A DNA stretch of 32,000 nt from Promethearchaeota archaeon (GTDB lineage Archaea > Asgardarchaeota > Lokiarchaeia > Sigyniarchaeales > Promethearchaeaceae). The position numbers were made by a program, and so were the translations under genes. Below the pieces are notes generated by a model. The model was given only the letters and a program-made list of their open reading frames with translations, was not told the origin of the DNA and ran no database searches. Below, piece by piece: positions 3,102 to 23,043 of the stretch. Location of the stretch: the NCBI GenBank assembly GCA_016933055.1, contig JAFGBS010000028.1, positions 1-32,000 of the forward strand, read 5' to 3'. How positions within the stretch are numbered: position 1 is the first letter of the stretch; each line of letters begins with the position of its first letter.

Positions 3102-3776
3102 TTAATTATTATTGTAGGTATCTAACAATTGGAGAACTTCTTCACTGTTTTCGTCTTTCCAATATTTGTATGCGTCAGCAACCGCGAAGGACTTCCCAGC
3201 TCTGATATCAAGGCATATTATTCTCAGATTTATATCAGAAGATTCGTTTGCCAACTGCTCAAAATGTTGAACTGTTCGCGCATGTGCTGTGGGAACCGCA
3301 ACTGTGATTCTGTTTGGATTTCTCTTTACAATGCTCATAATTGCTGTTTTCATCGTAATACCGCTAGCTAAACCATCATCAATCAAAAAAATCTCCTTAT
3401 TTTTAAGATTAGCTGGTAAAAGGTGTTTTTCAAATACTTCTGCTCTTTTTTTCAATTCTTGAAGTGCTTTTTCCGTTTGTTTTTCTATTGCATTTTGGTT
3501 TATGTATCCCGTTTGGATGAAAATTTGATTATAGATAGTATCCCCATCAATTGTTACTGCACCGAATCCTGCTTCCGTTGTCCAAGGAAATTGGATTTTT
3601 CGAGCAAGATAAACGTAAACTCTATTGATATTCAAACTCTCTGCCAATGATATAGCAATGGGGACTCCACCGTTCGGTATTGCACATATTATCATATCAG
3701 ATAGAGGTTTGGTTTCCTTTGTAAATAGAGAGGATAGTTTTCGACCTGCATCTGTTCGATCTGTAAATGGATACAT
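3102..3776 (-). CDS. Type I phosphoribosyltransferase-like protein
   Basis: FTDRTDAGRKL start, AIPNGGVP, LARKI...EAGFGAV, PRPP-binding LIDDGLASGITM, and VAVP, all typical of the small uncharacterised PRTase family. Confidence 0.9.
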   Translation of the reverse strand: MYPFTDRTDAGRKLSSLFTKETKPLSDMIICAIPNGGVPIAISLAESLNINRVYVYLARKIQFPWTTEAGFGAVTIDGDTIYNQIFIQTGYINQNAIEKQTEKALQELKKRAEVFEKHLLPANLKNKEIFLIDDGLASGITMKTAIMSIVKRNPNRITVAVPTAHARTVQHFEQLANESSDINLRIICLDIRAGKSFAVADAYKYWKDENSEEVLQLLDTYNNN

Positions 3777-3847
3777 CTAAGGTATAGTTTAAATTTGGTA
3801 TTTAAAATCTATCGACTAATTTTCCAAATATCATCAAAGAGATATTT

Positions 3848-3869
3848 TCGTGAAAGCACACTTTCACGA
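3848..3869. promoter_or_regulatory. Perfect inverted repeat TCGTGAAAG-caca-CTTTCACGA; candidate operator or recombination site
   Basis: 9-bp arms with a 4-nt spacer in the divergent intergenic region between the PRTase and the TA operon. Confidence 0.45.
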
Positions 3870-4016
3870 TCTTACATATATACCATAATGATACCCTCAT
3901 GTTCCCTTAGTAGTACGAAAACGAAGTAGTAGTAGAAATAAAATATGATTAATGGAAAATTTCTGATGAGTATTTATAGATATGTATATATATTTGTTAA
4001 TATGTATAATTCTGTG

Positions 4017-4259
4017 ATGACTCAATCAAAACTAAAACAAAAAACAAAAAATGTTACTACAACCATAAAAGAAGACGATTATAAATTTCTAAAAAAAAAT
4101 AATCTACAAGTTTCTTCAGCTCTATCGATTGGTGTACAGACATTGAGGAATATATATGAAACTGGACAAGTTAAAATAAATTCCGAAGACATTAAACTAG
4201 TAAGAGAATTAATGGATGAAAATAGGAATGTACTAAAGCGATTGGGAGAATCTGACTGA
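4017..4259 (+). CDS. Putative antitoxin with ribbon-helix-helix-like N-terminus
   Basis: About 80 aa from ATG 4017, with a TATA-like tract about 25-35 nt upstream, so the ORF-track start at 3945 is less likely. NVTTTIKEDDYKFLK..LQVSSAL fits RHH. The C-terminal RELMDENRNVLKRLGE resembles Doc-neutralising helices. It lies 4 nt upstream of the toxin. Confidence 0.65.
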   Translation: MTQSKLKQKTKNVTTTIKEDDYKFLKKNNLQVSSALSIGVQTLRNIYETGQVKINSEDIKLVRELMDENRNVLKRLGESD

Positions 4260-4263
4260 AAGT

Positions 4264-4653
4264 ATGTGGTTCCCTGATCTTCAATTCATTTTGGGTACAT
4301 TCACACTATTAAAAGAACTCCCAGAGTGTTCTGACCTTATCAAAGACAAATGTGTTAATCCAAATGGTTTGAACGGAACTCTTGATAAAGTTAAGTTTGG
4401 ATTACCATTTAAAAAATCGACATATATCGAAAAAGCATCAATTTTAATCCATGATATTGTTCTGTATCATTATTTTACAGATGGTAATAAGCGTATTGGT
4501 TTCTTAAGTATGGTAATTTTTCTGAAGAAAAACGGTAAAATAATTTCAGCATCAGAAGATGAAAAAGTAGAATTCACACTTGAAATCGCAAGGGGTAAAT
4601 CGTCGTTAGAAGATATTTCTAGTTGGATATTTGGTCACCTAAATATTGAATGA
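4264..4653 (+). CDS. doc: Fic/Doc-family toxin (death-on-curing type)
   Basis: 129 aa with HYFTDGNKRIG, matching the Doc motif HxFxDGNKR, preceded by EKASILIHDIV. Confidence 0.9.
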   Translation: MWFPDLQFILGTFTLLKELPECSDLIKDKCVNPNGLNGTLDKVKFGLPFKKSTYIEKASILIHDIVLYHYFTDGNKRIGFLSMVIFLKKNGKIISASEDEKVEFTLEIARGKSSLEDISSWIFGHLNIE

Positions 4654-4707
4654 ACTTTAAACATCCACTATCTTTCATGAAATCAATATATTTTTGGGGT
4701 TCATTTG

Positions 4708-4976
4708 CAATGGGTGCCATTTTATAACCTACTTGATAGTAATCTTTTTCTAGTGTCCGATTCCGGTTTGATTACTCAACATCTGTGGAGTGGTAGAGAC
4801 GGAGTCTATAGGGTACTAGGCACTCCTACGGTAGATCCACGGCATCCCATTGAAAAATATGCCGTGGGTATACCGTAGATAAACTTAGTGCACGTTATTC
4901 CCGCCGTAAAAAACGACTAAGCGTAAAGTGGTGATAGATTCAGGCTATTTTGATCCTTGGATTTTTCTTAGGATCA
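4708..4976 (+). ncRNA. Candidate structured non-coding RNA or element, family not recognised
   Basis: 4741-4920 is 44% GC by hand count within AT-rich intergenic DNA. Four consecutive stems (4750-4819, 4826-4878, 4884-4921, 4951-4976) with seven G-U pairs on the + strand. No plausible ORF seen. Confidence 0.55.
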
Positions 4977-5032
4977 TTTGTACGCACAAAATGCTTCCCT
5001 AAGATCTTAAATCAATTCTTTCATGAAAAGAT

Positions 5033-5051
5033 CTCTATCATTGTGATAGAG
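5033..5051 (-). terminator. Inverted repeat CTCTATCA-ttg-TGATAGAG; possible terminator of the permease gene
   Basis: Perfect 8-bp arms about 40 nt downstream of the stop at 5093, followed by ATCTTTT on the - strand. Confidence 0.3.
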
Positions 5052-5092
5052 TGAAATTCAGACTCGACTATTTGTCATAATTCTCATATAAC

Positions 5093-6388
5093 TCAAGATA
5101 GAATTAGGGCATACAACATCGTATATCCTAATATAGCGAGAAAATGAAAGGTTGAAAACATCGCTCCAGTTTTCAATAATCGTTTATAATTTAAGTTCTT
5201 CACGCCAAATTTTTTTGCCATTGAAAGAGTTAGGAGATCGCATGCGGAACCTTGAGGTAAAAAGTTGCCTGCCATATTTACACCCCCAATAAACGCAATA
5301 ATAATTGGATTTGGAAAAGGACTAACTTTAATCAATTCTGAGAAAATTGGTAAAAGAATTATTGTAACAGGAGTACCGGCAAGAAAAGCAGACATAAAAG
5401 AGGAAATTACTAAAGTTATTAACACGGTGAGATAAATGTTATTATTCGTCACATTAGACAAAATTGAGGAAATTAATGTTGAAAATCCGAAATAGGATAA
5501 CGAATTAGATAGAATAAATAAAATGGCGAAAACTATTATTAATTTCCATGGGATCTCATTTTGAAGATCAGAAAAATCGAACTCTTTAATATGAACAATT
5601 AGAAGGAGAGCTGCGGCGATTACCGAAACGAGTGAGGGTTCAAATCCAATTATCATGAACAAAAATGTAATCAACATAATTACAGACGTCAGTATAAAGT
5701 TCTTCTTATTTTCTATCACTATTTCTGGATGCCCAAGTTCTAAAAGGAGCTTTTTGTTTCTTTCAGTAGGTCTTTCTTCTTTTCTTAAGATAAAAAAATC
5801 CAAGGAAAAAATTGTAAGAATTAAAGTAATCAAAAAGAGTATTCCCATATTAGAAAAATATTCATTAAATCCCCATCCAAACTCTTGCCCAATTATCAGA
5901 TTTTTTAAACTTGACACAGGGGTTAGAATTGCTCCTATATTTATTGTAATGGTCATCCCCATCATATATGTACCTGCTGGTATCTTTAAAATTCGGCATG
6001 TTCGATATATTAAAGGAATCAAGATTAAGGAAAGTGTTAAATCTTCGATAAATGCGACAACTATGCCCGTAAAAATACAGATCATATAGAAAAATAGCCG
6101 ATTATTTCCTTTCGTGATGTGGATTAATTTTATTGCAACATACTCTAAAACCTTGTCAGTTGTCGCAAAATTGATAATTATCTGCATTGCAAAAATAAAA
6201 ATTAAGGTGTTAAAATTAATAAATCCAAGAATTTCAATTTCATCGAGATTGTAAATACGAACCATAGACACTACAGCTATCGCTCCAATAATCAAAGCGA
6301 TTGGGAAATAATCGATTTTACTTTGTGAAAAGAAACCCATCAGTATTCCAAATAACACTAAGATTAGGATTATAGCTGATAAATCCAT
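5093..6388 (-). CDS. ArsB/NhaD/SLC13-type (ion transporter superfamily) permease
   Basis: 431 aa, highly hydrophobic. NIGAILTPVSSLKNLII and NMAGNFLPQGSACDLL hairpin motifs of the IT superfamily. Confidence 0.85.
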   Translation of the reverse strand: MDLSAIILILVLFGILMGFFSQSKIDYFPIALIIGAIAVVSMVRIYNLDEIEILGFINFNTLIFIFAMQIIINFATTDKVLEYVAIKLIHITKGNNRLFFYMICIFTGIVVAFIEDLTLSLILIPLIYRTCRILKIPAGTYMMGMTITINIGAILTPVSSLKNLIIGQEFGWGFNEYFSNMGILFLITLILTIFSLDFFILRKEERPTERNKKLLLELGHPEIVIENKKNFILTSVIMLITFLFMIIGFEPSLVSVIAAALLLIVHIKEFDFSDLQNEIPWKLIIVFAILFILSNSLSYFGFSTLISSILSNVTNNNIYLTVLITLVISSFMSAFLAGTPVTIILLPIFSELIKVSPFPNPIIIAFIGGVNMAGNFLPQGSACDLLTLSMAKKFGVKNLNYKRLLKTGAMFSTFHFLAILGYTMLYALILS

Positions 6389-6862
6389 TTTAGTAAATGT
6401 ATGATTATTCTTTTAAAAAGTGTCCGCCCACCCTTATTTTTTCTTTACTAGGTGCGAAAATTCAATCTGTCCAGTCATATTTTATTTTTCTAATAACTTT
6501 GCATGAATTTATTTCAAGTATGTAAATTATTTGATTATTATCTTAACGACATCAACGAATCAGAACAAGAAATTAGCCTTTCTTCTCTTTCGAACTATTT
6601 TTGCAAGCCTATAACACTACTAAGTTTAAAATTTCCGTATAATCGATGGTATGTGAGTCTGTTTTACCCTATTTAGACTTGTCTATTGTTTCCAGATGTT
6701 GATGTAATGCGAGAGACAAGAAAACCGAATCGAGAAAATTTCTGTTAATGTGATAAAACTTATACAATACACAAGATGAAAACGAAAAAAAAATTACGGA
6801 GTATTTATGGAAAAAGAGTGAGAATAGTTATTGTTTTATTGTGTTCTGATAGTTTAAGGTAT

Positions 6863-16426: not shown

Positions 16427-19201
16427 TTATCTAATTTTTTTCCTTTTTTTTCGAGAGATTAATTTTCTCATTTCTTCAGCAAGTAGTAAAATGAATGCTC
16501 CGGAGACGATTATAACCCAATCAAGTAATGTCAGCGGTGTAGTTCCTAATAGAACATTCATAAAAGGAGCTTGTATAGCTAGTATTTGGAGGGATATTGA
16601 AACAGCTAAACCAATAGCAATACTTGAATTAGATCTAAATCCTAGTTGGAAAATGGATTGATTTCTTGACCTGCAATTAACCGCATTGACAATCTGGAAG
16701 AACGCTAACGCATTGAAAGCTAAAGTTTGTTTTTCCAGAATTGTTGCATCTGCACCGTGTAGTAAAGAAATAAGCAATACACCAGAAGCCATAATCACTG
16801 CGGTAAATATTATCTCAAATAACAAACTTTTGGATAGTATAGATTCATTCGGTGATTTTGGGGGGAGTATCATCACATCCTGTTCTTTTGGTTCTCTTGC
16901 TAAAGCTACTGTTAAAGTTCCGTCCGTCACAAGGTTTACCCAAAGAATAGCCAGTGCTGTAAAAAGGGGAGTATTGTCTCTCAATAAAATAATGCTTAAG
17001 AGGATTGTAAGAACCTCTCCAATATTGGTCGTAAGGAGAAATTTAATTCCTTTTTTTATATTATCTGCTACTACTCGGCCTTCCTCAATTGCATTTACAA
17101 TACTTGCAAAATTGTCATCTGTTAGAATCATTTTTGCCGTTTCTTTAGTGATATCGGTCCCTGTAATTCCCATGGCGATTCCTACATCTGCAGCTTTCAA
17201 TGCTGGCGCATCGTTGGCTCCGTCCCCCGTCATTGCTACAATCTCATTTTTACGTTTTAGCGAATTAACCACACGGTATTTGTGGGTTGGGGAAACACGT
17301 ACAAATGCTGATATCTTATCGATGCTATCATCTAGTTCCGAATCCAAAAGGTTCTCTAACTCAATGCCTTCAATAATCTCGGAACCAGGAGTCACGATAC
17401 CGATTTCTTCCCCGATGGCTTTTGCAGTTAACTTATGGTCCCCAGTCGCCATTATTACATGAATTCCAGCACTTTTACTTAATTTTATGGCTTCTTTTAC
17501 TTCTTCCCGGGGCGGATCTATCATGCCAATTAAACCAAGAAAAGCCATTTTAGAGATCTTTTTTCCATCATTCATTAATTGCGATTTTACCAAATCAATT
17601 TGATCATATTCGATTTCCATTGATGCAAATCCAAGAACTCGTAATCCCTCACTTGCAAATTTATTTGCATTTTCCAGAATTTTTCTTCTCGTTTCTTCAT
17701 TGATTGGCATGCTTTGATTATTGAATAGGAAAGTATCAGATAGCTGTAAAATTGACTCAGGAGCTCCTTTTGCATGAATAGCAATCCCTCCGTTTTCTGA
17801 TTGATTAAATGTCACCATAAATCGATTTTTCGGGTCAAATGGAATCTCATCAACTCTCGGAAAATCCCGATGAAGATCTTCTCTTTGTAAATGTAATTTC
17901 GCTGCCGCTACCAGTAATGCTCCCTCAGTAGGATCTCCCGTTATTTCCCACCGAATATCGTCATCCGCAAGACGGTTCTCTATCAGATGAGAGTCATTAC
18001 ATAAAATTGCTGTTTTGAGTAGTGTATGTAATTCATCACCTGGAGTAATTTTGCTGATTTTCTTATCGATTTGACCTTCTTCATAGAATCTGCCTTCTGG
18101 TTTATAGCCCACACCGGTGATTTCCAGAATTTTATTGTTACTTAAAATCTTCCGAGCTGTCATTTGATTACTTGTCAATGTACCTGTTTTATCGGTCACA
18201 ATAGTTGTTACTGCCCCCAAAGAATCAATTGCTGCCAACTTTCGCATAATTGCATTTCGCTTCACCATCTTTTGTACCCCAATTGCCAGTGTGATCGTTA
18301 TTGCTGCAGGTAATCCGGAGGGTATAGATGAGACTAAGGTTGCAATACCAAATAATAACATATCAATAAATTGAAATCCTCGCAGTAAACCGATTATGAA
18401 AATTAATACACTAATGAGAATTGCTAGCAAGCCCAAATTTCTCGATAAAATTCCAATTCGCTTTTGCAATGGAGAAATGATATCTATTGCTTCATCAATA
18501 AGCGTCGTTATTTTCCCCATTTCAGTTTTCATTCCGGTGGAAAATACGATTGCTCTACCGCGTCCCGACGTAACGAGGGTTCCTGAATATACTATATTTT
18601 TCCGATCAGCTAACGGAATTTGTTCTGGAAATATCCCTACTTGTTTACGCACCGTTAGCGATTCTCCTGTAAGCATAGATTCATCTACTTCAAGATTCGC
18701 AACAGATATCAATCTGGAATCCGCAGGGACCTTATCTCCTGCTTCCAACAATATTAAATCTCCTGGAACGACATCTCGTGTTTTTATTCGTAGTTCAATA
18801 CATTCGGTTCCCTTGCTACAATTCCGAATAACATCTGCTTCTGGAGTTGCCATATTCTTTAATGCACTTAATGCTGCATCTGCTTTAGCTTCTTGAACAA
18901 AACCAATGATCCCGTTTATAAGTATCACCGCTACTATGACCGCAACGTTGATGATTTTACCAACAACCGCAGAAATAATTGCTGCAGCCACAAGAATATA
19001 CGTAATTCCATTAGTAAATTGTGAAATAAATAATTGTAATTTTGTTTTTTTCTTCTTTAAGCTTAGCTCATTTGGACCGTATTGAATTAATCGTTTTGCC
19101 GCTTCTTCTTCTGAAAGTCCCTCATATGATGTATTTAATTGATTTAATAATTCATTTTCGGGTATATTATGATAAATTGATTCATGGGTAATTTTTATCA
19201 C
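16427..19201 (-). CDS. P-type ATPase, P2A (Ca2+-ATPase-like) scaffold
   Basis: TGES, DKTGT, KGAPE, DPPR, TGD, MTGDGANDAP, M5 TNIGE, M6 NLVTDG. M4 reads PSGLP. Confidence 0.95.
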   Translation of the reverse strand: MIKITHESIYHNIPENELLNQLNTSYEGLSEEEAAKRLIQYGPNELSLKKKKTKLQLFISQFTNGITYILVAAAIISAVVGKIINVAVIVAVILINGIIGFVQEAKADAALSALKNMATPEADVIRNCSKGTECIELRIKTRDVVPGDLILLEAGDKVPADSRLISVANLEVDESMLTGESLTVRKQVGIFPEQIPLADRKNIVYSGTLVTSGRGRAIVFSTGMKTEMGKITTLIDEAIDIISPLQKRIGILSRNLGLLAILISVLIFIIGLLRGFQFIDMLLFGIATLVSSIPSGLPAAITITLAIGVQKMVKRNAIMRKLAAIDSLGAVTTIVTDKTGTLTSNQMTARKILSNNKILEITGVGYKPEGRFYEEGQIDKKISKITPGDELHTLLKTAILCNDSHLIENRLADDDIRWEITGDPTEGALLVAAAKLHLQREDLHRDFPRVDEIPFDPKNRFMVTFNQSENGGIAIHAKGAPESILQLSDTFLFNNQSMPINEETRRKILENANKFASEGLRVLGFASMEIEYDQIDLVKSQLMNDGKKISKMAFLGLIGMIDPPREEVKEAIKLSKSAGIHVIMATGDHKLTAKAIGEEIGIVTPGSEIIEGIELENLLDSELDDSIDKISAFVRVSPTHKYRVVNSLKRKNEIVAMTGDGANDAPALKAADVGIAMGITGTDITKETAKMILTDDNFASIVNAIEEGRVVADNIKKGIKFLLTTNIGEVLTILLSIILLRDNTPLFTALAILWVNLVTDGTLTVALAREPKEQDVMILPPKSPNESILSKSLLFEIIFTAVIMASGVLLISLLHGADATILEKQTLAFNALAFFQIVNAVNCRSRNQSIFQLGFRSNSSIAIGLAVSISLQILAIQAPFMNVLLGTTPLTLLDWVIIVSGAFILLLAEEMRKLISRKKRKKIR

Positions 19202-20317: not shown

Positions 20318-22033
20318 TTAAGCGTCCCAACCGCCTTGTTCACGTAATTTTTTAGCGATTTCCTTGGATTTGTCTTTTAAGGTCACATAATCGGTTTTTG
20401 AGACTCTATTGAGTGGCATCTGCTCGGGTTCCAGAATTTCTACATGGGAGGGTCTTTTATATGAAGCCATTTCCTTGCATAACTCATCAATCTCCTCTTT
20501 TGTCACTTTCTCTCCTTTTCGAGTTTCGACAAACGCCATGATTCCCTCTGTAAATACATCATGAGGTACTCCAACTACTGCAACCGAACTGACTTTTTCT
20601 TTTAATCCCGTACCGATAAAATCTTCAACCTCTTGAGGATATACGTTATAGCCCTTTGGTTTGATTAGAAGTTTACTTCTACCCGCAAAATGTAATCCTT
20701 CCTCATCATAGGAACCTAGGTCCCCGGTATAAAGGATGCCATCCGTGGAAATTGTTTTTCTTGTATTTTCCACGTCGTCCATATACCCAAGAAATATCTG
20801 CGGTCCTTCGAAACAGATTTCTCCAATTTCCTCTTTGGGTTTCTCATCTCCCGCAGATCCGTCTTTTTTCATCATTTCTCGTATAGAAATTGGGCAGAGA
20901 GGACTATCATAACCAATTCCCTTGAGTAAATCATCTACATCATAATCCATAGGGGTATATGTACAGAAACCTGCCGTTTCTGTCAATCCTAATCCTGTTG
21001 GGTATTGTTTGGCCATAGTAGATAACTTCTCTAAGAATGCTCTCGTCACTTGTTGCCCTGCAGCTATACAGAATCGTAGACTGGAGAGATCATAGTCATC
21101 GTAATTAGGCAATCGCCATTCCATCGAAAATAACGCCGGAATTTGCCCCATGCAAGTCACTTTGTACTTTTGGATAGCGTCGAGTGAATGATCAGGTTTG
21201 AAGATATGAAGAATAACGGCAGTCCCGCCTCCGTAAATTGTGGTTGCGAGCTGTTCTGTTGTGCATCCCACATGGCTTGGGGGAAGGTTTACAAGCATTC
21301 GATCGCTTTCTCTCATCTCAAATCCCGTTCCTAAACTAATATTTTGGAGCAAGATGTTCTCGTGACAAAGCAATGCAGGTTTAGGCCAACCTGTAGAACC
21401 TGTTGTGAAAATAATTAGGCAAGGATCCCGTTTATCTACTTTTTTGGAAGCCCTCTTTACTGCGCCTCCCAGGATTCCCTTTAGGAGATATACTTTCTTA
21501 ATATCTGCGGCAAATTCTCCAATCCCGATTGCTCCATCCATTACTAATTCGGGTTCCTTCTGGAATTGCACCCAATATTTTACCGTATCCTTATGGGCTT
21601 CCATCACAGGCTTAACAATATCTCGAAAGTCTGCAACTTCCGTTTTTCCTAAAAACATGTACACTTTGGGTTTTATTTTATCGAATGCACGAATAATCTC
21701 TTGAGATTTTAATCTTGGATCAAGAGGGGCTATGATTGCACCGATTCGGAAACATCCATACATCAAGTAGATGTGTTCCTTAAGTAAAGCAAGGCTTGTA
21801 GCAACCACATCCCCTTTCTTAATACCAAGAGATAATAGCTTAGCAGCAAATGCTTTGCTGGAAGTTTTGAACTGTTTCCATGGTATTTCCGCACCCGTAT
21901 TGTATTCAATTATCGCTAAGTCATCGGGCTTAATTTTCGCCCATTTGTCGACGATATCGTGCATGAGAGGATATTTTTCAAGCTCCTCAGCACGTTCCAT
22001 AACTAACTTATTTTTTTCTTCATCTGGATACAA
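20318..22033 (-). CDS. Acyl-CoA synthetase/AMP-forming ligase (ANL superfamily)
   Basis: IFTTGSTGWPKP P-loop, GLTET, YTGDLG, GRSK..IKPKGYNVYPQEVE. Confidence 0.9.
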   Translation of the reverse strand: MYPDEEKNKLVMERAEELEKYPLMHDIVDKWAKIKPDDLAIIEYNTGAEIPWKQFKTSSKAFAAKLLSLGIKKGDVVATSLALLKEHIYLMYGCFRIGAIIAPLDPRLKSQEIIRAFDKIKPKVYMFLGKTEVADFRDIVKPVMEAHKDTVKYWVQFQKEPELVMDGAIGIGEFAADIKKVYLLKGILGGAVKRASKKVDKRDPCLIIFTTGSTGWPKPALLCHENILLQNISLGTGFEMRESDRMLVNLPPSHVGCTTEQLATTIYGGGTAVILHIFKPDHSLDAIQKYKVTCMGQIPALFSMEWRLPNYDDYDLSSLRFCIAAGQQVTRAFLEKLSTMAKQYPTGLGLTETAGFCTYTPMDYDVDDLLKGIGYDSPLCPISIREMMKKDGSAGDEKPKEEIGEICFEGPQIFLGYMDDVENTRKTISTDGILYTGDLGSYDEEGLHFAGRSKLLIKPKGYNVYPQEVEDFIGTGLKEKVSSVAVVGVPHDVFTEGIMAFVETRKGEKVTKEEIDELCKEMASYKRPSHVEILEPEQMPLNRVSKTDYVTLKDKSKEIAKKLREQGGWDA

Positions 22034-22959: not shown

Positions 22960-23043
22960 TGCAGAGAGAGGGATTTGAACCCCCGAACTACTAAAGACTG
23001 GATTCTGAGTCCAGCGCCTTTGACCATACTCGGCAATCTCTGC
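22960..23043 (-). tRNA. tRNA-Leu (anticodon CAG), intronless, CCA not encoded
   Basis: Reverse complement is GCAGAGATTGCCGAGTATGGTCAAAGGCGCTGGACTCAGAATCCAGTCTTTAGTAGTTCGGGGGTTCAAATCCCTCTCTCTGCA: 7-bp acceptor stem, CTGGA/TCCAG anticodon stem, long variable arm, TTCAAAT T-loop. Confidence 0.97.

Follow-up and report, generated by a model that had tools for sequence, protein, structure and literature searches.

A hairpin-rich region next to a Doc gene in a Lokiarchaeial genome is very probably a decayed member of a TA-flanked MITE superfamily confined to one genus

INTRODUCTION

Downstream of a Doc toxin gene in a Promethearchaeota archaeon (assembly GCA_016933055.1, contig JAFGBS010000028.1), a GC-richer stretch of intergenic DNA can be drawn as four adjacent hairpins, referred to below as stems 1 to 4. 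Such a region could be an RNA gene, a part of the Doc operon or a piece of mobile DNA. A preliminary description, made by reading the sequence, left the choice between a new archaeal class of non-coding RNA, possibly linked to the toxin–antitoxin genes, and the folded end of a non-autonomous mobile element of the HUH type. Here we examine which of these the region is. Our analysis leads us to conclude that positions 4775–4917 very probably represent an internally shortened and decayed member of a MITE superfamily that has TA flanks and is confined to one genus. Throughout the text, ‘the window’ is the whole stretch of 32,000 nucleotides that was analyzed (positions 1 to 32,000 of the contig), and all coordinates without a contig number refer to it.

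MATERIALS AND METHODS

The genome that holds the window, G000, has a size of 3.76 Mb in 36 contigs, a GC content of 35% and a completeness of 91%; contigs are designated by C and a number. G001 is a congeneric genome and the sole other genome of the genus in the comparison. For the 250-nt sister family described below, an HMM was seeded by four copies carrying the 14-mer TAGGCACNCCTACG, rebuilt from 14 near-full-length copies, and used with nhmmer at E ≤ 1e-3. The covariance model R1 describes the conserved core plus hairpin and also reaches copies of the 250-nt family. Filled and empty flanks were compared by direct reading.

RESULTS AND DISCUSSION

Folding of the region and searches for known RNAs

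All four stems were found at the positions first given for them and were reproduced by the minimum free energy (MFE) fold. The GC count reported for 4741–4920, 80 of 180 nt, was exact on recount. On the + strand, 4700–4980 folds with −91.1 kcal/mol compared with −67.9 kcal/mol for shuffled sequences (z −5.04), and none of 200 shuffles equaled it, which places the fold well beyond chance. The − strand of the same interval folds with −74.8 kcal/mol (z −4.18). When the repeat unit was folded alone (4773–4919), z was −4.36 as RNA and −3.46 as − strand DNA.

Searches for known RNAs confirmed the earlier impression that the element matches no known class. Using cmscan with Rfam 15, both at the gathering thresholds and at E ≤ 10, we found nothing at the element beyond sub-threshold microRNA and U7 noise, and five other copies of the repeat searched at E ≤ 1 likewise gave only sub-threshold microRNA and U7 noise. 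ARAGORN predicted no tRNA at the element. Two archaeal classes were rejected by eye, H/ACA sRNA because a pseudouridylation pocket is missing from the 20-bp stem, C/D sRNA because C and D boxes are absent. A single reading frame of 57 aa, unsupported, crosses the element. Given the strong fold and the absence of an Rfam match, we regard the structure as real and unannotated. The sole Rfam or ARAGORN hit in the entire 32-kb window is a tRNA-Leu(CAG) at 22960–23043 on the − strand.

The four stems had been taken as parts of one element. The structures stand, but they do not form a single unit, since the outer part of stem 1 and the whole of stem 4 lie beyond the repeat (Table 1). For 4750–4772 there is no similarity to the paralogues upstream of TTGATTA and no second match in the same genome. 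Stem 4 likewise lies outside the repeat and has no counterpart in the paralogues; it is a candidate 3′-end signal that may belong to the Doc operon. A long-range pseudoknot between CCCATTG and CAATGGG fares no better. The complementarity itself exists. However, at least one such 7-mer complement occurs in 30% of shuffles, the partner CAATGGG lies outside the repeat, and the match is without counterpart in the copies on C19, C9 and C27. The pairing is thus at the level of chance, and we do not retain the pseudoknot.

Table 1. Positions of the element, its parts and its neighbors in the window, and copies of a longer related family elsewhere in G000
Feature	Position	Strand	Basis
Doc/Fic toxin gene, 129 aa; upstream neighbor, not part of the element	4264..4653	+	Pfam Fic/DOC, E 6.8e-8
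CAATGGG, proposed pseudoknot partner	4708..4714	+	outside the element
Non-repeat flank pairing with the element core in the MFE fold (outer stem 1)	4750..4772	+	folding
TA at 5′ edge, putative target-site duplication	4773..4774		paralogue homology begins here
Decayed MITE-like element, 143 nt, repeat unit proper (very probable)	4775..4917	+	aligned with four paralogues of the same genome
5′ terminal repeat CTCAACATCTGTGGAG; family consensus (A/G)TCAACATCT..	4775..4790	+	
Conserved core module GGGTACTAGGCACTCCTACGGTA, 23 nt	4811..4833	+	fits the 250-nt sister-family consensus
20-bp hairpin (stem 2), palindromic module of the family	4826..4878	+	at the corresponding position in all subfamily copies
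Degenerate 3′ terminal repeat AAAAAACGAC; family ..AAAATTGA(T/C)	4908..4917	+	aligned to the C19, C9, C27 and main-family 3′ ends
TA at 3′ edge	4918..4919		TA also after the 3′ end of the C19, C9 and C27 copies
Separate 7-bp hairpin with T5 run in the loop (stem 4)	4951..4976	+	read and folded
Copy of the >330-nt family	C2:130168		
Copy of the >330-nt family	C16:253336	−	
Copy of the >330-nt family	C36:77314	−	
Copy of the >330-nt family	C36:100340	−	
Copy of the >330-nt family	C15:18050	−	
Copy of the >330-nt family	C31:23216	−	

A family of repeats with common ends

The closest kin of the window copy are four repeats in the same genome, on C19, C9, C27 and C6. Homology with these paralogues runs from the TA at one edge to the TA at the other, and this defines the unit listed in Table 1. 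The C19 paralogue is 75% identical to the window copy, and the two have in common the blocks TTGATTA(C/G)TCAACATCTGTGG and TAGGCACTCCTACG, the arm sequences of the large hairpin, and CGTAGATAAA. The 5′ terminal repeat is common to the window copy, the C19 copy and two mini copies in G001, which are about 110 nt long and have the same termini as the window subfamily. This subfamily is small, with five copies, and is more GC-rich and internally shortened. With model R1 the window copy scores 82.8 bits. Its termini are degenerate (CTCAAC versus GTCG as the reverse complement); the first base is now C and the 3′ end is now CGAC. With its ends drifted in this way, the window copy is probably immobile.

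A larger set of repeats was reached through the 14-mer TAGGCACNCCTACG, which has nine exact occurrences in G000, each before a hairpin closing with CGTAG; the nine sites have no adjacent ORF in common. The sister family of about 250 nt gave 44 nhmmer hits, among which 17 are full length (240–294 nt, mostly 249–252 nt). These full copies begin with NTAATCAAC and end with TTGATTAN, and their flanks are unrelated immediately outside. TA is present at the 5′ edge in 13 and at the 3′ edge in 16 of the 17. The window copy cannot be aligned with this family over its full length, but the 5′ end, the 3′ end and the 23-nt core are common to both.

The signature of the superfamily is a 5′ TA followed by (A/G)TCAACATCT, a 3′ end ..TTGA(T/C) followed by TA, and, internally, GGGTnnTAGGCACnCCTACG with a hairpin and CGTAG. 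The ends of the family members form inverted repeats, which read ATCAA/TTGAT for the main family and GTCAA/TTGAC for the subfamily. Since the first and last bases change together, the TA lies outside the inverted repeat. The repeat is perfect over 5–8 nt and extends imperfectly to ∼22 nt in the 250-nt sister family, and the 5′ end fits the terminal motif TCAACACCTATC. Across the genome TCAACATCT occurs 126 times, compared with 42 for a reversed control, and 41 of the occurrences are preceded by TA(A/G). The next bases are ATTC in 24 cases, compared with ATAC in 10, ATCC in 7 and GTGG in 2 for the variants analyzed here. Because ATTC is the commonest continuation, at least one further, larger subfamily must exist. 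A third, longer family (B) has the same 5′ sequence, ATCAACATCT, with TA before it in five of six copies and with unrelated flanks. The longer elements exceed 330 nt and begin with TA followed by ATCAACATCTATACGGGTCTATCCATC.., their 5′ terminal motif being that of the family under study. The C2 copy abuts a 250-nt element, the two having one TA in common. Altogether, several elements abut the 5′ end of another element with exactly one TA between them.

The members of the family are ∼110–294 nt in length. All 49 copies examined for placement were intergenic, where intergenic means between ORFs of at least 110 aa, a crude gene call. They lie in tandem, convergent and divergent gaps; within tandem gaps, 17 copies point in the direction of the genes and 13 in the reverse direction.

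Restriction to one genus and filled versus empty sites

We counted 21 occurrences of the 5′ terminal 15-mer in G000 (0 for its control) compared with 0–5 per genome in 120 other genomes of the order. Model R1 gave 17 hits in G000 and 4 in G001; 39 genomes from 16 other genera yielded no hit. When the 301-nt region was compared with 40 relatives by BLAST, short chance matches alone were obtained besides the two G001 mini copies. If the region were a conserved RNA, relatives would be expected to carry it; multicopy kin do exist within the genus, while conservation at orthologous loci was not observed. Two wider scans also gave hits that we discarded: two in a genome-contig collection scanned with the core motif, both bacterial and due to chance, and two among metagenome contigs scanned with the 21-nt 5′ end, which lie within coding sequence and are unrelated.

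Comparison of the two congeneric genomes revealed filled and empty sites. Across species, the window subfamily is matched best by the copy on C10 of G001. In G000 the orthologues of its flanking genes, on C16, are ∼35 nt apart and the element is missing. At the joint, G000 reads ..GGATAT-TA-GAAACATC and G001 reads ..GGATAC-TA-[ATCTACACC..GGAAGAT]-TA-A..., so that a single TA in the empty site corresponds to TA-element-TA in the filled one. A second G001 copy, on C89, fills a convergent gap that measures ∼40 nt in G000. Both inserts begin TA-ATC.. and have a TA adjoining the 3′ end. Restriction to one genus, non-orthologous positions, and filled versus empty sites with TA at the joints are predicted by a MITE and not by a conserved RNA gene. 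For the window copy itself no empty site was found. DNA synteny with G001 around the window gave no match, and the best G001 match to the transporter gene is a 35% paralogue. A joined-flank search within G000 found no empty site.

The two G001 mini copies lie on C144, at ∼16970–17060 and 20617–20735, 3.6 kb apart. They flank a CitMHS-type transporter gene that is the 35% paralogue of the transporter gene in the window, which is probably a coincidence.

Conservation of the internal module and the question of an RNA gene

The strongest case for an RNA would be that of structured non-coding RNA genes forming a multicopy family, in which the 23-nt motif and a covarying hairpin are functional and the copies are gene duplicates or retro-copies. 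Besides the strong fold of both the region and the repeat unit, stem 2 supplies the evidence in its favor. Among the five subfamily copies, 80% of the cells of stem 2 are paired and 6 of the 20 pairs have changed on both sides; only 1–3 of 500 shuffles scored as high by three measures. With the G001 copies added (12 rows), 84% are paired and 10 of the 20 pairs have changed on both sides, but this alignment leans towards structure, having been fitted to the model and containing two rows in which the palindrome is read from the reverse strand. Covariation support is limited to hairpin 2, and a DNA palindrome predicts the same outcome; stem 2 matches the covariance model on the − strand too. Also in keeping with an RNA gene, the 23-nt motif fits the sister-family consensus while the rest of the window copy cannot be aligned to it, and a TATA-like TTTTATAA lies ∼25 nt upstream of 4750.

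Most of what is known of the family stands against such genes. The G-U pairs of the window copy had been read as pointing to an RNA of the + strand. Among the 17 full sister-family copies, however, the mean folding energy is −61.5 kcal/mol on the + strand versus −63.7 kcal/mol on the − strand, and the + strand is the better one in 8 of 17. RNAalifold gave a weak consensus for the 250-nt family on either strand (−4.3 and −7.1). With no strand bias in its folding, the G-U argument fails for the family. The copies have no preferred orientation relative to genes, and they have defined ends, inverted termini and TA flanks. They are known from a single genus, where they occupy non-orthologous positions found empty in the sister genome, and they range from ∼110 to ∼290 nt through internal deletions, as is typical of the decay of transposons. 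Neither the window copy nor the five other copies found a match in Rfam. Dozens of dispersed copies in a single genus, with no strand asymmetry, are not what a new archaeal RNA class would look like, and we consider an RNA gene family distinctly improbable. As regards transcription, a search of sequencing runs found no RNA run with the locus, and in the metatranscriptomes of the source study (n = 2) the locus had no usable cover.

There remains the internal module, which has kept more of its sequence than the MITE around it. Conservation of the 23-nt motif far exceeds that of the remaining element, and the module is also found by itself within other repeats, since numerous nhmmer hits span only HMM positions ∼145–222. 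The neutral decay of a dead transposon fails to predict that the hairpin and the motif are kept, so some constraint on the module is possible. This conservation would be explained equally well by a function of the DNA, for instance in protein binding, by correction within the palindrome, or by a role in RNA. That GGGTnnTAGGCACnCCTACG and its compensating hairpin are functional, either as the binding site of an unrecognized TA-targeting transposase of Asgard archaea or as an RNA hairpin that shapes the 3′ ends of neighboring transcripts, seems to us unlikely. If it were true, these orphan MITEs would point to an undescribed transposition system.

Search for a transposase partner

We also looked for an enzyme that could have moved these elements. 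The HUH-type transposase Y1_Tnp (PF01797) and the TnpB zinc-ribbon (PF07282) were not found in the 91%-complete genome, while both searches were positive in control genomes. DDE_3, of the IS630 type, had no match in the genome and was also found in control genomes. Inverted pairs of the terminal motif enclose ordinary genes only and no transposase. In MAGs, autonomous IS copies are often lost at assembly; with an assembly of 91% completeness, the missing partner is consequently weak evidence. The only DDE_Tnp_1 (IS4/IS5-type) signal in G000 is a decayed fragment at C8:3190–3495, which has four stop codons and lies on a 7.7-kb contig; its surroundings contain no convincing matching element ends.

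These results bear on the proposal that the region is the end of a non-autonomous element of the IS200/IS605 (HUH) type or a remnant of a TnpB omega-RNA. Like the palindrome-associated elements of IS200/IS605 and the omega-RNAs, the repeats are non-coding, hairpin-rich and multicopy, with subterminal hairpins and no ORF, and the TTGAT near their ends presumably recalls the target motifs of IS200/IS605. Elements of that family, however, have no inverted termini, create no flank duplications and depend on a Y1 TnpA, whereas the elements described here show inverted termini with TA on both sides in a genome where TnpA and TnpB are undetectable. The nine exact-core copies, moreover, have no common ORF beside them. 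Terminal inverted repeats and TA flanks without a Y1/HUH TnpA or TnpB suggest a MITE with terminal inverted repeats rather than one of IS200/IS605 type. We therefore keep the non-autonomous mobile element from the preliminary description and drop the HUH type, which is very improbable.

Proposed origin of the window copy and comparison with known MITEs

The MITE assignment draws on the size of the family, its lack of coding capacity, its copy number, the TA duplication and the insertion polymorphism (two G001 copies); an autonomous partner with the same ends was not found in this assembly. We infer a cut-and-paste mechanism and the type of the transposase. A transposase acting in trans would recognize the short terminal inverted repeats, 5′ (A/G)TCAAC.. 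and 3′ ..TTGA(T/C), cut the element out and paste it into a TA, which would be duplicated on both sides. The window copy would have landed in a convergent gap, ∼120 nt beyond the end of the Doc gene's coding sequence, after which its ends would have drifted until it was, as now, probably immobile and probably fixed. It is likely just transcribed by read-through, forming the 3′ untranslated end of the Doc transcript. Its RNA-like look may be explained by the palindromic module beside the 23-nt motif and by the terminal repeats, all inherited from the element, with chance pairing to the local flank supplying the remaining RNA-like structure.

We take the nearest kind to be the TA-flanked, IS630/Tc1-mariner-like MITEs, such as Correia of Neisseria, Nezha of cyanobacteria and SM1 of Sulfolobus. 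Like these, the elements are ∼110–290 nt long and ORF-less, with dozens of dispersed intergenic copies; they have inverted termini, TA flanks and hairpin-rich folds on either strand; and they are lineage-restricted, with presence/absence differences between close relatives. In contrast to these MITEs, the perfect terminal repeat is short (5–8 nt), no cognate transposase was found (no DDE_3), one module of motif plus hairpin is common to several families that otherwise cannot be aligned, and the host is a Loki-type Asgard archaeon. Among the papers searched, none describes MITEs in Asgard archaea. The family adds modestly to the sparsely described mobile DNA of Lokiarchaeia and is characterized by one genus, TA flanks, no recognizable transposase and a module conserved beyond expectation. 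It also carries a caution. In the present AT-rich Asgard genome, GC-richer intergenic hairpin islands are mostly MITE copies and not RNA genes, and screens that look for non-coding RNA by GC content or folding energy will repeatedly pick up such MITEs.

The Doc gene and the surroundings of the element

The Doc gene upstream of the hairpins is real. Its translation carries the motif HYFTDGNKR, and the Pfam hit is above the cut-off (Table 1). A second contig encodes an identical Doc protein, and the spacing of the genes there is the same. The two-gene Doc module extends over 3945–4653 and begins with an ORF of 80–104 aa, 4 nt upstream of the toxin gene. This ORF matched no Pfam family above the cut-off and gave a sub-threshold DLP_helical match only; if real, it encodes a putative antitoxin of no known family.

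The element lies ∼120 nt past the Doc stop codon on the same strand, in the convergent gap before the CitMHS-type transporter gene. It had been suggested to regulate the toxin–antitoxin genes or to form a tripartite module with them; as such it might be an RNA antitoxin or a 3′ element peculiar to operons of toxin–antitoxin genes. The neighbors of the four closest paralogues speak against this. The eight flanking genes encode a VTT/DedA protein, an epimerase, an FG-GAP protein, a DegT aminotransferase, a TrmB regulator, an MBL hydrolase and two proteins without a family, and none is a toxin–antitoxin gene. Copies of the repeat occur in every type of intergenic gap, and the element lacks the tandem repeats found in type III RNA antitoxins. 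The co-occurrence with Doc pairs that a tripartite module calls for was not seen at these four paralogues, and we give a Doc-specific function hardly any credence. No bearing of the MITE on the Doc toxin–antitoxin pair is demonstrable.

The convergent gap also contains two small hairpins with T runs, at 5033–5051 on the − strand and at 4951–4976 on the + strand. The former is terminator-like on the − strand and lies just past the transporter stop codon; the latter lies past the MITE. These hairpins may mark the 3′ ends of the converging transcripts.

The arrangement at this locus was also seen in other data. In a hot-spring metagenome DNA run from a different study (X2, 2017), short contigs are identical to parts of 3694–6500 and cover about half of the element. 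Since these contigs are identical although the source sample of the window is labeled sediment, a near-identical strain is present in a second data set. In all, the two samples besides the source that contain window DNA have the same filled arrangement.
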